64,000 nt of DNA, taken from an uncultured delta proteobacterium. Its GTDB lineage: Bacteria > Desulfobacterota > Zymogenia > Zymogenales > Zymogenaceae. The stretch is taken from positions 384,001-448,000 of the forward strand of contig CAVTLK010000005.1 in the NCBI GenBank assembly GCA_963735595.1, read 5' to 3'. Positions 22,625-58,334 of the stretch are shown here, one piece after another. A program made the position numbers and the translations under genes. How positions within the stretch are numbered: position 1 is the first letter of the stretch; each line of letters opens with the position of its first letter. The notes under the pieces were generated by a model. The model saw only the letters and a program-made list of their open reading frames with translations, made no database searches and was not told the DNA's origin.

Positions 22625-23120
22625 CGTCATTGCGGATAAAGCGAAGCACGGTGACAGTGGGGGGACTGCTATGACACTTCTCCGTCATTGCGAGCGCAGC
22701 GAAGCAATCCCCTTGTTGTACGGTGACAGTCGGGAGGTTGCCGCGTCGGCCCCGATGGGGCCTCCTCGCAATGACGACGAAGTGGGTGAGCGGAATTCCG
22801 ACGGCACTTCTCCGTCATGGCGAGCGTAGCGAAGCAATCCCCTTGTTGTACGGTGAAGACGGGTAACAGTGAGGGGATTGCCGCGTCGGCCCCGATGGGG
22901 CCTCCTCGCAATGACGGCGGAGTGGGTGAGCGGGATTCCGACGGCACTTCACCGTCATTGCGAGCGCAGCGAAGCAATCCCCTTGTTGTACGGTGAAGAC
23001 GGGTGACAGTGGGGAGGTTGCCGCGTCGGCCTGGCGGCCTCCTCGCAATGACAATAATAGTCGTCGCCGAGGGCGACGTCGTTAAGCATTGCCGCGGCCC
23101 CTCCGGGGCCTCGCAAAGAC
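22625..23120. repeat. Array of CGTC-tagged palindromic repeat dimers (3 units of about 130-140 bp plus degenerate ends)
   Basis: CGTCATTGCGAG..AAGCAATCCCC - TTGTTGTACGG..GACAGT - G(A/G)TTGCCGCG..CTCGCAATGAC repeated. Confidence 0.92.
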
Positions 23121-24201: not shown

Positions 24202-24475
24202 GCGGTAATGACGGCGAAGTGGGTGACAGTGAGGGGATTGCCACGCCCCCTCCGGGGCCTCGCAATGACGGTAAAGTGGGTGAGCGGGATTCCGTCGTCA
24301 CTTCTCGGTCATTGCGAGGGAGTGAAGGAGATTGCTTCGCTTCGCTCGCAACAGGCTCCGCAATCCCCTTGTTGTACGGGGAAGTCGGGTGACAGTGAGG
24401 GGATTGCCGCGTCGGCCTGGCGGCCTCCTCGCAATGACCGCGAAGTGGGTGAGTGGTGTTCCGACGGCACTTCTC

Positions 24476-24976
24476 CGTCATTGCGAGGGAGCGAAGGAGA
24501 TTGCTTCGCTTCGCTCGCAACAGGCTCCGCAATCCCCTGACTATGTAGTAGATATCTATAATCACCAAGAATCTCTTCCGGTCCTTTCAAGGGATGGAGA
24601 AACAATTCTACGTCTATATCATGGCCAACGAACATAATACCGTCCTATACGTCGGAGTCACCAATGATCTGGTCCGGCGGGTCTTTGAGCATAAAGAGAA
24701 ACTCGTAAAAGGGTTTTCCAGGACGTATAACATCACCAAGCTGGTCTACTACGAGGTAGTCCAGGAAGCCGTGGCGGCCATCGCAAGGGAAAAGCAGCTG
24801 AAGGCGGGGTCGAGGGAAAGGAAGGTTGTATTGATAGAAAGCGTGAATAAGGAATGGAAGGACCTGTACGAGGAAATAGTCTAGAAGTGGAATGTTCGGC
24901 TTTTGACGGGATTTCAGTACGGTTTACGGTGACAGTGAGGGGATTGCCGCGGCCCTTCCGGGGCCTCGCAATGACG
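24476..24976 (+). mobile_element. Putative autonomous repeat element: inverted CGTC arms enclosing a GIY-YIG gene
   Basis: Left arm 24476-24537 and inverted right arm 24939-24976 bracket CDS 24594-24884; mobility is inferred. Confidence 0.55.
24594..24884 (+). CDS. Stand-alone GIY-YIG nuclease (96 aa)
   Basis: YVYIM..LYVGVT..L.RRV.EH..GF..Y..KLVYYE..AIAREKQLK..N.EW.DL. Confidence 0.93.
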   Translation: MEKQFYVYIMANEHNTVLYVGVTNDLVRRVFEHKEKLVKGFSRTYNITKLVYYEVVQEAVAAIAREKQLKAGSRERKVVLIESVNKEWKDLYEEIV

Positions 24977-25288
24977 GCGAAGTGGGTGGGCGGTGAGGGA
25001 TTCCGTCGTCACTTCACCGTCATTGCGAGGGAGTGAAACGACCGAAGCAATCCCCTTGTTGTACGGGGACAGTCAGGGGATTGCCGCGGCCCCTAAAGGG
25101 GCCTCGCAATGACGGCAAAGTGCGTCGAAGCAGGCAAAAACGCCGATAATCAGGGCTTTTAAAAGGCAAAAGCGACTTTAGACCCGCTATTGCTTTCCCG
25201 CCCGCCATAACCGCACTTTTCGGCCCTCAACCGCCCCCCGCGGGCGCAATAATAAGGCAAAACCAATTAGATTCCTCTAATTTTTTTC

Positions 25289-28954: not shown

Positions 28955-29420
28955 CCGTCGCCGAGGGGACGGACGGGGCTCGCAATGACGGCGAAGTGGG
29001 TGACGGACTGAGTCGCCACGGCGCCTACGGGGCCTCGCAATGACCTTTTCACCGTCATTGCGAGGAGCGAAACAGCTTGCTTCGCTTCGCTCGCAACAGG
29101 CTCCGCAATCCCCCGACTGTCACCGTACAATAAGGGGATTGCCACGCCCCCTAAAGGGGGCTCGCAATGACGGCGAAGTGGGCGACGGGTGACAGTGGGG
29201 TGTGCGACGGCACTTCACCGTCATTGCGAGGGAGCGAAACAGCTTGCTTCGCTTCGCTCGCAACAGGCTCCGCAATCCCCCGACTGTCACCGTACAACAG
29301 GGAGGTTGCCACGGCCCCTAAAGGGGCCTCGCAATGACAATAATAATCGTCGCCGAGGGCGACGTCGTTAAGCATTGCCACGTCGGCCTGACGGCCTCCT
29401 CGCAATGACGGCGAAGTGGG
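28955..29420. repeat. CGTC palindromic repeat array (no nuclease gene)
   Basis: Five CTCGCAATGAC and two CGTCATTGCGAG arms; shares blocks with the 22.6-25.1 kb arrays. Confidence 0.9.
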
Positions 29421-42247: not shown

Positions 42248-42351
42248 CACTTTTTTATTTTTCCGCGCGCCTTTTTGCCGCCGCTCTTACAGGCCGGAAG
42301 CTACCGGTACGGGCGGTGGCGCGTCGGCACGTATGATATTGGCCTCGGCGC

Positions 42352-42380
42352 TTGAATTACCGCCGGTCCTGGGGTATACT
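42352..42380 (+). promoter_or_regulatory. Sigma70-like promoter of glpD
   Basis: TTGAAT-17 bp-TATACT. Confidence 0.55.
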
Positions 42381-42476
42381 ATAGGACAGACGCACGGGCG
42401 GTCCCACCGATTGGGTGGTCTGGCTGATAGGACCCCGGCGCCGAAATCTCCATTAACCGGTTCAAGCGAGGCGGCA

Positions 42477-44151
42477 ATGATACGAGACGTTAAACAGATG
42501 AGCGAGCGTCACTACGACCTGATCATCATCGGCGGCGGCATCACCGGCGCGGCGGTGGCCTGGGACGCGAGCCTGCGCGGGCTCTCCGTGGCGATGTTCG
42601 AAAAGGACGATTTTGCCCACGCGACCAGCGCCGCGACCAGCAAGCTGATCCACGGCGGGCTGCGTTACCTCAAGAACTTCGAGCTGGGCCTCGTGCGCGA
42701 GTCGCTGGCGGAGCGGCGGATCATGGAGATAATCACGCCGCACTTCGTCCACCCGATCCCCTTTATCGTCCCGCTCTACGGCCACGGGATGGAGAGCCGC
42801 CTCCCGTTCCAGGCGGCGCTCTCGGTCTACGACCTGCTCGCCTACGACAAGGAAGACCTCAAGGACAAGGACAAGCGCATCAAGAACCACAGCATCATAT
42901 CGGAAGGCCAGGTCAAGAAGCTCCTGCCGGGCGTCCACACCCACGGCCTCAACGCGGGGGCCGTCTATTACGACTGCCAGATGAGCTGCCCGGAGCGCCA
43001 CGTGCTGGACTTCGTGGCGTCGGCGGCAGACTACGGGGCGGAAGTGGCAAATTACGCCTTAGTTGTCGATATCCTCAAGAACCGCAGCTCCGTGGTCGGG
43101 GTGCGGATCAGGGACCTGACCGACGGCGCCGAATACGAGATCATGGGGCGGGTGGTCATCAACGTCACCGGGCCCTGGGGGGATATCACGCTGGGGATGC
43201 TGCACCGCAAAGACGTGGAAAAACGGCTCATCCGCTCCAAGGGGATACACCTGATCACCCGCTCGCTGACCACGGAATACGGCGCCGTGCTCAGGACCAG
43301 GGACGGGCGGCACTTTTTCATCATCCCGTGGCGGGGGATGTCCCTCATCGGGACCACCGACCGCCTCTACAAGGGCGACCCCGACCATTTCAAGGTCTCC
43401 GAGGAGGATATCCAGGGCCTGGTGGACGACACCAACGAGAACTTCCCCGGCGCAAAGCTCAAGCGCAGCGACGTGCACTATTTTTACGGGGGGCTCAGGC
43501 CCATCGTGGAAAAGGACACCGATATCGACGTCTACGACGCCTCGCGTAAATACGAGATCTACGACCACGAGAAAGACGACAACGTCAAGGGGATCATCAC
43601 GGTCATCGGCGGCAAATACACCACGTCGCGAAACCTCGCCCGGCAGGTCGTGGACATGATCTACACCAAGCTGAAGCAGGAGCCGGCCGAGTGCCTGACC
43701 GACACGACCCCGCTCTACGACGGGGCGACCGGGCCGCTGCGCCGCTATCTCGATAAGGAACTGAAGAAGCACGCCCGGCAGTATAAGGCCGAGGTTATGG
43801 AGAACCTGATCTACCAGTACGGCACGGAGCACGGCAGGGTGCTCTCGGTGGCCGAGAAGGACGAATCGCTCAAGGAAAAGGTGGCCGACAGGAAGGCCGG
43901 ACATCATGGCCGAGGTGAGCTACGCCGTGACCGACGAGATGGCTTTACATCTCGACGACGTGATCTTCCGCAGGACGGGCATGGGCACCATCGGCAACCC
44001 CGGGGATGCGGCGCTCAAACGGTGCGCGGATTTGATGGGGCGGCTGTTGGGCTGGAGCGCGGAGCAGAAGAAAAAGGAGATCGCCTGGGTGAAGACCCAT
44101 TTCGTGCCCATCAAGAAGGACGGGGAGATACCGCCGATAAAGGACGTGTGA
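42477..44151 (+). CDS. glpD: FAD-dependent glycerol-3-phosphate dehydrogenase/oxidase (apparent frameshift near 43895)
   Basis: IIGGGITG, TSKLIHGGLRYL, IGTTD, GGKYTT; C-term LDDVIFRRT in next frame. Confidence 0.88.
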
Positions 44152-44696
44152 GGGGGTAGGGGAGAGGAGGGGTGTTGCGGCGCTTATTCTCTTGCGTGGC
44201 AAAGGATTTTACATTTTCCATGCCGTAAATCCCCACTCGTTATTACGAGCCGCCTGAAAGGCGGCGCGGCAATCTCGTCGATGATCACTCGCGAAGCGGG
44301 GCGATCACTCTGTAGATCAACGTATTAAAAGAGCCGCGCCCTTGCCCCACCCGCACCGATGAGATTGCTTCGGTCGCCGAGGCTCCCTCGCAATGACGGA
44401 TATGATTTGTCACGCTGAACCGTAACCGGTTAAGTCAAGTCACTCCACTGTACCTTCGCAGCCGTACCTCACTCGTCGTTGCGAGCCCCCGGAGGGGGTG
44501 CGGCAATCTCATCGGTGATCGCACGCGAAGCGGAGCGATCACTCCGTAAATCACGCGGTAAAAAACCACCCCTATGCCTACCCGCACCGATGAGATTGCT
44601 TCAGTCGTTACACTCCCTCGCAATGACGGGTATGGCTTTTCTGTATAGACCATATCGTAATAAGTCCGGGACCCTTTTACCAGATAGAACCTCACT

Positions 44697-45180
44697 CGTC
44701 ATTGCGAGGAGGCCGACAGGCCGACGCGGCAATCTCATAGGTGATTGCGAGCGAAGCGACGCGATCACTCCTCAATATAAGTCGTCGGAGAGATCGCGCC
44801 ATTCGGGATTGAGGCTATCGATCAACTCCTCTTTTTTCTTCCTCGAGCCGCCCTTGATCCGCTTTTCTCTCAGTATTGCGGTTTCGGCCGTCGGGAATGT
44901 CTCGCAGTAGACGAGTTTCGAGACGCGATACTTCGCGGTAAAGCCCGGGTTTATCCCTTCTTTATGCTCCTGGACACGCCGTGTTATGTTATTTGTGATT
45001 CCGGTATAGAGGACGGTGCTGCTATTATTCGTCATGATGTAGACGTAGAATTGCCTTGCCATTGGTTTTTACCCGGGAGTCTTAAAATCGGAGCAACGTC
45101 AGGTTTTTTTACTGAGCCTACGCTCTTTGCCACCCGCACCGAGGAGATTGCTTCGGTCGCTTAGCTCCCTCGCAACGACG
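44697..45180 (-). mobile_element. Putative autonomous repeat element 2: inverted CGTC arms enclosing a GIY-YIG gene
   Basis: Arms 44697-44736 and 45144-45180 bracket CDS 44772-45062; mobility is inferred. Confidence 0.55.
44772..45062 (-). CDS. Stand-alone GIY-YIG nuclease (96 aa), paralog of 24594-24884
   Basis: YVYIM..LYTGIT..RRV.EH..AILREKRIK..NPEW.DL; 50/96 identical to copy 1 by manual ungapped alignment. Confidence 0.93.
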   Translation of the reverse strand: MARQFYVYIMTNNSSTVLYTGITNNITRRVQEHKEGINPGFTAKYRVSKLVYCETFPTAETAILREKRIKGGSRKKKEELIDSLNPEWRDLSDDLY

Positions 45181-45224
45181 GGATCGGGCGTTGCCCAGTA
45201 CCATGTGATCTAATGAACCGGTAG

Positions 45225-46388
45225 TCACTTAATATCCCCCTCCCCAAATCCCTTCAACTGCTCAAGCACGAATTTTCTGATCTCGCCCGCTTTCGGGTAG
45301 CCTTTCAGGGCGTCTTTGGGGTGGTATTCCTTTAAGAGCGGTACCGCCTTTCCCCCGCAGTCGCACGTGGGTTTCTCTCCCCGCGGCACCGTGATGTGCC
45401 GGTTGCACTTCTCACACCGGTAGGTGTCCTTCCTCCCCGATTTCTTGCCCCGCTTTGCGAAGGGTTTTCCCTCTATATCCACGATATCAAACGAGAAATC
45501 GACGGTGGTGGCGCTCGATATCGACGTCCCCACGCCGTAGGAATCGCACAGCGGGTTCAGCTCTTTAATCGAATACTCGTCCAGCCCGCCGCTTGCCAAG
45601 AGCTTCACGTGGGAGAAACCGCGCAGGTTCAGCTCCCAGCGCACCTCCGCGAGTATTTCCTTGAAGTTCCCCCTGCGGGAACCGGGGGTATCGAGCCTGA
45701 CGCCGAAGAGGTCCTTCCCCAGCGCCTCGGCCACACTGACCGCCTCGAACTTCTCGTCGTTGAACGTATCAATCAGCACGATCCGGTTGACGGCCCTGTC
45801 GATGATCTCGTTAAACGAGGTCGCCGCCTCCACCGTATCGCCTATTAACAGAATCAGCGCATGCGGCATCGTGCCGGTGGGGGGGAGTTCCAACAGCTCG
45901 GCCGAGGCCACGGAGCTGACGCCGTCGCACCCGCCGACGTAGGCGGCCCGGTCGATCATCGGGGCGATAGCCGGGTGCATCCGGCGCGCGCCGAAGGAGA
46001 GCAGCGGCCGGTGCCCGGCGGACACCCGGCAGCGCGCGGCCATGGTGGCGATCCCCGTGGCCTGGCATAAAAACCCGAGAATCGCCGTCTCGTGGACGCC
46101 GAAGTCGGTATATTCGCCCTCGATCTCGAGGACCGGCTCTCCCGGATAGAATATCGACCCCTCGGGCAGCGCCCTGATCGTCACGTCGTGGATCGACAGG
46201 AGGTCAAGCACCTCCTCCAGCCCGCAGAAGACCCCCCACTCCCAGTTCCTCGGGAAGCCCTTGAGGAAGACCTCGGCGGCCACACGGCGTTTGATCTTCT
46301 TCGCATCGAGGACCTGCCTGGTACGGACGAAATAGATATCGGTGACCTTGCCCTGCCTGATCTCTTCTTCGGTGAGCGTATAAAACAT
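45225..46388 (-). CDS. pncB: Nicotinate phosphoribosyltransferase
   Basis: TDIYF, FGARRMHP, GTMPHA, LIDTF, VRLDT, SGGLD, YGVGT. Confidence 0.88.
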   Translation of the reverse strand: MFYTLTEEEIRQGKVTDIYFVRTRQVLDAKKIKRRVAAEVFLKGFPRNWEWGVFCGLEEVLDLLSIHDVTIRALPEGSIFYPGEPVLEIEGEYTDFGVHETAILGFLCQATGIATMAARCRVSAGHRPLLSFGARRMHPAIAPMIDRAAYVGGCDGVSSVASAELLELPPTGTMPHALILLIGDTVEAATSFNEIIDRAVNRIVLIDTFNDEKFEAVSVAEALGKDLFGVRLDTPGSRRGNFKEILAEVRWELNLRGFSHVKLLASGGLDEYSIKELNPLCDSYGVGTSISSATTVDFSFDIVDIEGKPFAKRGKKSGRKDTYRCEKCNRHITVPRGEKPTCDCGGKAVPLLKEYHPKDALKGYPKAGEIRKFVLEQLKGFGEGDIK

Positions 46389-57924: not shown

Positions 57925-58334
57925 GATTGATATCGTCATTGCGAGCCGCCGAAGGCGGCGCGGCAATCCCGGACGTTGTTCCAAAAGGGCCTATACGGCA
58001 CCAGGCATGATTAGTACGGGGAGGCGTTTTTCGCGGCCGATGAATACCGATTGATATCGTCATTGCGAGCCGCCGAAGGCGGCGCGGCAATCCCGGACGT
58101 TGTGCCAAAAGGGCCTATACGGCACCAGGCATGATTAGTACGGGGAGGCGTTTTTCGCGGCCGATGAATACCGATTGATATCGTCATTGCGAGCCGCCGA
58201 AGGCGGCGCGGCAATCCCGGACGTTGTTCCAAAAGGGCCTATACGGCACCAGGCATGATTAGTACGGGGAGGCGTTTTTCGCGGCCGATGAATACCGATT
58301 GATATCGTCATTGCGAGCCGCCGAAGGCGGCGCG
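57908..58334. repeat. 124-bp tandem repeat (3 full + 1 partial), each carrying one CGTC arm
   Basis: Unit starts 57908, 58032, 58156, 58280; one substitution (TGTTCC/TGTGCC) in unit 2. Confidence 0.95.

Follow-up and report, generated by a model that had tools for sequence, protein, structure and literature searches.

An Ssn-like GIY-YIG nuclease gene and its co-diverging GTC-tagged repeat arms between glpD-like and pncB genes of an uncultured delta proteobacterium

Identification of the locus and its nuclease

The window analysed here is a stretch of 64,000 nt from the genome of an uncultured delta proteobacterium, hereafter G000. Three tandem repeat units were found in it between two convergent host genes, a glpD-like gene on the plus strand (42333..44151; glycerol-3-phosphate dehydrogenase-like, below the NCBIfam cut-offs) and pncB on the minus strand (45225..46388; nicotinate phosphoribosyltransferase, NF006415, 506 bits against a cut-off of 243). 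The glpD-like gene is frameshifted at 43890-44151, with its final 81 codons in another frame; the congeners G001, G002 and G003 align across this region, and the frameshift is probably an assembly error.

All units share one plan: a plus-strand arm comes first, then another hairpin and a spacer, with a minus-strand arm last. The plus-strand arm is composed of GTC-RTTGCGAG, a variable inner hairpin and GGCAATC, and the inner tails of each unit pair via a 15-bp stem. Unit 1 (44239..44397) is a gene-less dimer with arms at 44239-44274 (plus strand, decayed) and 44363-44397 (minus strand), an inner hairpin at 44280-44310 and a 38-nt spacer at 44311-44348. Unit 2 (44475..44627), a gene-less head-to-head dimer, has arms at 44475-44508 (plus) and 44594-44627 (minus), an inner hairpin at 44514-44544 and a 35-nt spacer at 44545-44579. 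Unit 3 contains a gene encoding a GIY-YIG nuclease of 96 amino acids, designated the type-2 paralogue (44772..45062, minus strand; ORF with a match to PF01541). Its start codon is separated by a leader (45063..45131, minus strand) from the tail of the 5' arm (45146..45179, minus strand; GTC tag, TGCGAG class). Its stop codon abuts a type-2-specific inner hairpin (44740..44770), beyond which lies the 3' arm (44698..44734, plus strand), inverted relative to the 5' one. The type-2 tail on the inward side of the 5' arm ends GGTGCGGG, and the same tail precedes all four type-2 genes identified. Measured between GCGATCACTC and ACCCGCACCGA, the spacers of units 1, 2 and 3 are 38, 35 and 361 nt long. 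The original prediction, made from the letters of the DNA, had described three tandem dimers at this junction, with variable spacers of 35-40 bp in units 1 and 2 and the gene in the corresponding slot of unit 3, and the coordinates of all units confirmed this layout; the second, inner hairpin, present in all three units, had not been part of that description.

Unit 2 was predicted to fold into a single long hairpin (z -5.4; none of 200 shuffles equally stable), and for single arms the lowest-energy fold was not a tag-plus-stem hairpin (z -0.7 to -3.6). A sigma-70 promoter scan of the leader (45063..45131) gave no match, and a promoter and terminator scan of the locus gave no promoter and one terminator-like match, at chance level. 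Membership of an RNA family was rejected, the sole Rfam match (mir-279) scoring 24.5 bits where 56 were needed, as expected by chance. Four small-share DNA runs, searched at 80%, matched only contigs of relatives and provided no usable evidence of excision; one of these contigs joins 44552 to 45227.

A type-1 paralogue, copy 1, is located elsewhere in the window on the plus strand (24477..24975), its gene at 24594-24884 being flanked by arms at 24477-24534 (plus) and 24942-24975 (minus) with CCC-type tails. An identity of 50/96 between the two proteins had been claimed, and recomputation gave the same value; comparison of arms and tails likewise bore out that the type-2 unit has the polarity of copy 1 and different inner tails.

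The sole domain of the type-2 protein is GIY-YIG (PF01541, E 8.9e-17), and no NCBIfam profile matched it. Conserved residues are Y8, Y19, R29, E66 and N85; in an alignment of 48 sequences Y19 and E66 were invariant and Y8 was present in at least 90%. An AlphaFold2 model based on the 48-row alignment had a pLDDT of 91, and its best matches among solved structures were UPF0213 BH0048 and Slx1, both GIY-YIG folds. Neither Pfam, nor the model, nor the fold search indicated an HUH or DDE domain; GIY-YIG was the only one found. Chenal et al. (Nat Commun 2025; PMC11893778) described the Ssn family (SsnA, CDD cd10448) together with its NTS/SRM repeats. Homology to N. meningitidis SsnA was judged by proxy, using the N. 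gonorrhoeae orthologue (L130), the gene for which has NTS repeats on both sides; it was matched at E 4e-16 by tblastn over 93% of the length with 36/89 identical residues (40%). This lies within the limits set for Ssn proteins (E<1e-10 over at least 75% of the length), as do the size and architecture of the protein (one GIY-YIG domain, PF01541, in a compact model of 96 amino acids, the limit being <150) and the catalytic Tyr, Tyr and Glu, with Y8, Y19 and E66 spaced as Y6, Y17 and E64 of SsnA. The protein is an Ssn homologue, placed by a quick tree in a different subclade from the NTS-flanked homologues. Among type-2 genes dN was 0.09-0.25 and dS, near saturation, 1.0-3.1, giving dN/dS of about 0.06-0.16, a codon-level signature showing purifying selection on the nuclease gene.

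Arm families and site turnover among congeners

Four nuclease homologues were identified in G000: the type-2 gene, copy 1, a gene at C2:850424 and a 5'-truncated one on C3. An arm pattern search of the genome gave 128 matches, which were sorted by inner tail into families that we label T1 (50), T3 (25), T4 (15) and T2 (5), with 33 unsorted. Head-to-head arm pairs within 450 nt numbered 31, two of which hold a nuclease gene, and the gene-less pairs have family-specific spacer lengths of 25-26, 49-51 and 67-68 nt. Type-2 arms are few (5/128), so the type-2 paralogue has spread little. Over 359 arms, sequence conservation outward of the arm ended at base -1, which was C or T in 86%. The arms therefore have the unpaired YGTC tag before a palindromic stem, and the head-to-head dimers, by which CGTC-REPs are recognised. 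The published SRM pattern had no match in 44151-45250 or in the type-1, type-2 and type-3 loci, and it did match loci L007, L009, L015 and L020.

Clusters of T1 arms lie in the window at 22684-22979, 24236-25113 and 29054-29277, and in all three cases the orthologous G003 region has a different content. At 57935-58216, T3 arms are arranged in tandem with a 124-nt period, as three full copies and a partial fourth, a position occupied by one arm in G003. In G000, T4 dimers whose spacers measure 67-68 nt are located at C2:766882-767329, C4:276417, C5:258880 and C5:489036, and a full-length nuclease matching them was not among the four homologues of this genome; a search for the T4 tail in congeners gave two matches in G003 and none in G001 or G002. 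GTAG-tagged palindromic repeats share intergenic sites with GTC-tagged arms at L125 in G003 and at the G003 sites orthologous to G000 C5:408235, 413053 and 489035.

The same pncB-glpD junction holds a type-2 gene in G002 (75%) and G003 (84%), so that it is present there in three of four congeners; the gene is a resident of the junction rather than a recent arrival. In G001 a decayed T1 dimer occupies the junction instead, and in G006 and G007, which belong to other genera, no arms were found at it. A second type-2 gene in G002 (L012, 66%) has no counterpart in G000, where about 600 nt without arms or gene form the corresponding site. Recent insertion of the type-2 copy was rejected, as G002 and G003 have the same site, and its duplication from copy 1 within G000 is unlikely, as the quick tree does not place the two as sisters. 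A single clade (SH-aLRT 97) unites the four type-2 proteins, and the 5' tail and 3' inner hairpin are common to all four; T1 genes (L014, L018, L019 and the truncated L021) and T3 genes (L004, L013) have their own tails. Within the genus three protein clades thus carry three tail types at six sites; with ten genes sharing these sites, independent cases are few.

Silent divergence at the junction was unusual between G000 and G003, its closest relative. The pS of the nuclease gene was 0.597 (bootstrap 0.44-0.75), a value exceeded by one other among 133 syntenic ORF pairs (95th percentile 0.33) and four times the local median of 0.147. The values for pncB (0.284) and the next ORF upstream (0.298) were raised too, to about twice the local silent divergence. 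This suggests a recombination tract that may begin at the cassette and reach pncB and its neighbour. In comparison with G002, the pS of the nuclease gene (0.566) was unremarkable (median 0.493, 55 ORFs), and genes beside other arm clusters had, by inspection, no raised divergence between G000 and G003. These pS values speak against plain vertical inheritance of the allele in G000 and G003, and the simplest reading is that the divergent allele would be a replacement from another lineage. Alternatives are local mutagenesis or weak codon bias; codon bias of the nuclease gene is indeed weaker (GC3 0.67), which is able to raise pS.

Across 165 kb, seven of eight arm clusters differed in length and arm content between G000 and G003. 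Orthologous intergenic regions, in which whole stretches had been replaced, contained neither a clean empty site nor a target duplication or an excision joint. Sites had also swapped occupants, as G002 has a type-2 remnant where G000 has copy 1. Aligned in this way, the genomes show rapid turnover at fixed intergenic sites.

Remnants of the nuclease gene were traced by an exact search for the type-2 hairpin, which gave eight matches in three of five genomes and none for a reversed control. One match, L121 in G002, is the remnant at the G000 copy 1 site; it is a gene-less type-2 dimer whose 94-nt interior still codes for 10 of the 11 residues in a stretch of the nuclease C-terminus (tblastn 7.8e-6). 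At the DNA level its similarity to each of the four type-2 genes was significant (p 0.002-0.008). L117 in G000 and its orthologue L122 in G003 retain the last 8 codons (p<=0.014 in 7/8 comparisons) and are hybrids with a T4-like 5' tail joined to a T2 3' end. Gene-less dimers had been proposed to be internal deletion derivatives, partly because the unit 1 spacer seemed to resemble the gene leader. Free local alignment of the spacers of units 1 and 2 with the gene flanks was not significant (best p=0.012 of 16 tests) and did not support that resemblance (p=0.076), but a comparison anchored at the tail that they share did match the first 20 nt of the leader, counted from the 5' arm tail, to the spacer starts (p 0.0015 and 0.003 for unit 1, 0.0045 and 0.018 for unit 2; 16 tests, mononucleotide shuffles). 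The 3' ends of both spacers had no clear match to the gene. Derivation by internal deletion is therefore evident directly at L121, L117 and L122, and is weakly indicated for units 1 and 2.

Association of nuclease and arm lineages

To begin with, 179 loci were assembled, comprising 21 from one search, the best 80 of 422 metagenome hits, 75 of 78 loci from 366 genome hits (three duplicates left out) and 3 PLSDB regions. Exclusion of 24 loci with short flanks or broken ORFs left 155. Among the matches listed, a GTC-tagged arm was found within 300 nt at 147/155 loci (about 12 when shuffled) and arms on both sides at 116/155 (0.2 when shuffled); both arms were of the same stem class at 108 of 112 loci, and only 47/155 had the gene inside a head-to-head pair. 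On a quick IQ-TREE of the 146 distinct proteins among these matches (98 columns, 80/143 forks open), arm class changed 17 times, compared with a mean of 44.6 in shuffled data (0/200 as low). Because kin share labels, prediction across phyla was also assessed, near relatives of the nuclease being spread over many phyla: among the matches listed, the nearest protein from another phylum predicted arm class at 67 of 72 loci, the nulls being 37.4 and, within phylum, 40.1.

The 155-locus set is biased to close relatives, and for this reason 200 genomes of the phylum were drawn. Matches were present in 48/201 genomes, usually as one copy per genome; of the 66 matches, 45 were new and examined (43 complete), 13 were already in the earlier set and 8 were left out. 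Arms lay on both sides at 34/43 loci, and 22/43 had the gene inside the pair. The nearest protein among the matches listed earlier predicted the class of these held-out loci in 34 of 41 cases (null 14.3, maximum 25); of the misses, four fell in a class poorly represented among the training loci, and three were perfect hairpins mislabelled by the class rule. In four of six genomes with several classified paralogues, all paralogues differed in class and matched their proteins, as in G062, where three paralogues have three classes.

Arm class and tail thus match the nuclease lineage, showing co-divergence in the sequences compared. The original prediction had proposed this, and had treated incongruent phylogenies, or a lack of flanking dimers at most homologues, as grounds for abandoning it; congruence was found across phyla and within single genomes, and arms on both sides are prevalent, but enclosure of the gene in a dimer is far less general. 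Physical linkage alone would yield such congruence, so matched cutting specificity does not follow from it.

Relation to Ssn, CGTC-REP and RAYT systems

The element is best described as a putative variant of the Ssn system, and is classed as a variant since its arms fail the SRM pattern. According to Chenal et al. (2025), the sites at which SsnA and three homologues cleave ssDNA lie a few bases upstream of the respective hairpin, and SsnA reduces integration of repeat-bearing DNA in N. meningitidis; origin as a domesticated mobile element, an analogy to RAYT/REP and pair-wise co-evolution were put forward there as hypotheses. Shared features are a single-domain GIY-YIG protein of about 95 amino acids, the catalytic spacing, GTC-tagged hairpins on both sides and a repeat specific to each homologue. 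The locus differs in its arms, which are longer, have interrupted stems (GTCATTGCGAG...GCAATC around a variable inner hairpin) and do not conform to the SRM pattern, in its separate subclade, and in the presence of four paralogues with distinct tails in one genome. The arms are set apart by the published pattern, and the SRM logo in PMC11893778 could include TGCGAG-class arms. SRMs flank both sides in only 42% of homologues in that study, so the mismatch weakens the view that these arms are SRMs, not the view that the system works like Ssn.

Similarity to the CGTC-tagged REPs of Di Nocera, De Gregorio and Rocco (2013; PMC3733652), for which that study reports no dedicated transposase, extends to the YGTC tag, mainly head-to-head heterodimers, conserved spacers and location in intergenic regions and between convergent genes. 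Compared by description, those REPs (CGTC-1 to -4) have stems of 8-9 bp and loops mostly of 4-5 nt, whereas the arms here are longer with interrupted interiors; a term search of four supplements of PMC3733652 did not find the arm motif. RAYT/REP systems (REPtron, REPIN, BIME), for which co-evolution was described by Nunvar et al. (2010; PMC2817692), are alike in having a gene between inverted REPs, adjoining tandem modules, dispersed doublets and enzyme-repeat co-evolution. RAYTs, however, are HUH/Y1 transesterases of IS200/IS605 type acting with GTAG-tagged REPs (PMC2817692), and here Pfam, model and fold search gave a GIY-YIG hydrolase and no HUH motif with catalytic tyrosine. The RAYT/REP-like pairing that had been suggested therefore stands as regards inverted repeats co-diverging with their enzyme, the inverted gene-inside layout being confined to the loci counted above, and fails as regards RAYT-like strand-transfer chemistry; strand transfer would need the host.

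The searched literature, mostly without subscription papers, did not yield any account of GIY-YIG genes with TGCGAG-class arms, of nuclease-repeat congruence or of deletion derivatives, and in the preprint 10.64898/2026.09.22.753630, as far as its text was available, SsnA loci serve only as a benchmark. The Ssn system itself is already known, and the new part is the comparative evidence. The flank tests presented in PMC11893778 used one homologue per genome, and the parts available contain neither a test of tree congruence nor any description of deletion derivatives or of turnover at sites. Mobile origin and co-evolution, merely hypothesised in the available text of that paper, gain comparative support from this locus family through congruence that persists when hosts are controlled for, through gene-less dimers that retain parts of the gene and through the turnover of cassettes at sites that stay the same.

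How the cassette may be maintained and spread

We consider it probable that the locus is a repeat-bounded Ssn-type cassette whose enzyme is predicted to cut ssDNA outside its own arms, host recombination then likely copying, swapping, expanding and deleting the cassette. By analogy with SsnA (Chenal et al., 2025), the enzyme would bind its own hairpin arm on exposed ssDNA and hydrolyse ssDNA only, a few bases 5' of the GTC tag. In a head-to-head unit the nicks would fall on the top strand at the left edge and on the bottom strand at the right one, and the breaks may be repaired by host recombination from other arm copies or incoming congener DNA. The enzyme, a hydrolase, has no means of rejoining DNA, and any spread would thus depend on repair by the host; nicking followed by such repair would account for the tandem units and hybrids, for the gene remnants, for the swaps between sites and for the divergent allele. 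The element would act as a resident REPtron-like gene, with units 1 and 2 as non-autonomous derivatives, and not as a cut-and-paste transposon. Because the SRM pattern does not match the arms, and tag plus stem is not the lowest-energy fold of a single arm, the SsnA recognition rule may not apply here.

A bolder extension, which we advance only tentatively, is that each nuclease lineage nicks only its own arms and host recombination copies the cassettes. They would then form a transposase-free selfish class and the missing engine of CGTC REPs, the propagator of which was left open in 2013 (PMC3733652), with orthogonal pairs coexisting, competing for intergenic sites and seeding gene-less dimers. 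With an intact paralogue for each of three repeat subfamilies, G000 provides a test set for orthogonal ssDNA-cutting specificities outside the SRM class.

A considerably less likely account, not mutually exclusive with the favoured one, is a host-domesticated ssDNA restriction enzyme that trims incoming or exposed ssDNA at the arms, the repeats being spread by processes of the host or by a different enzyme and congruence reflecting linkage only. The effect of SsnA on integration (PMC11893778), purifying selection, the usual single copy per genome and one site shared by three of four congeners would all fit. It accords poorly with the patchy distribution in the phylum, absence from the junction in G001, G006 and G007, near relatives in many phyla, the additional G002 gene L012 and gene remnants in dispersed dimers.

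That the GIY-YIG protein is the enzyme of a true autonomous transposon, excising and inserting the arm-bounded unit with gene-less dimers as MITEs, is improbable. Inverted arms bounding the gene, a sharp outer arm boundary, fixed dimer spacer lengths (25-26, 49-51 and 67-68 nt) and L012 at a second site are what a transposon would leave. To our knowledge, however, GIY-YIG domains hydrolyse DNA and no joining step is known for them; HUH and DDE domains were not found, the gene-inside-dimer layout was in the minority among the matches listed, and orthologous sites offered neither empty site nor target duplication. That this is an ordinary GIY-YIG gene of repair type (UPF0213/Slx1-like) which happens to lie where repeats accumulate between convergent genes, a view suggested by the solved-structure matches, by similarity to UPF0213 (PDB 1zg2, 1ywl) and Slx1 in fold and active-site residues, and by the unrelated type-1 dimer collected at this junction in G001, is very improbable and largely refuted by the flanking-arm frequency and by arm class tracking the protein, UPF0213 and Slx1 being distant (35% or less) and the three UPF0213-like rows lying apart on long branches with arms on both sides in 0/3.

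Several homologous loci had unusual settings. An Ssn-type gene on a Planktothrix plasmid (L132) has an MmeI-type restriction gene on one side and DISARM drmA on the other, and one on an Azospirillum replicon (L131) lies inside the sufB-sufC operon. At L260 (G053:C40:3891) the match is within an open frame of 1299 amino acids, without arms, a possible fusion to a large protein judging from the continuous frame. The genes at L006/L237 (G018) and L236 (G058) stop early, and a short run of conserved codons continues beyond the stop into the 3' arm.
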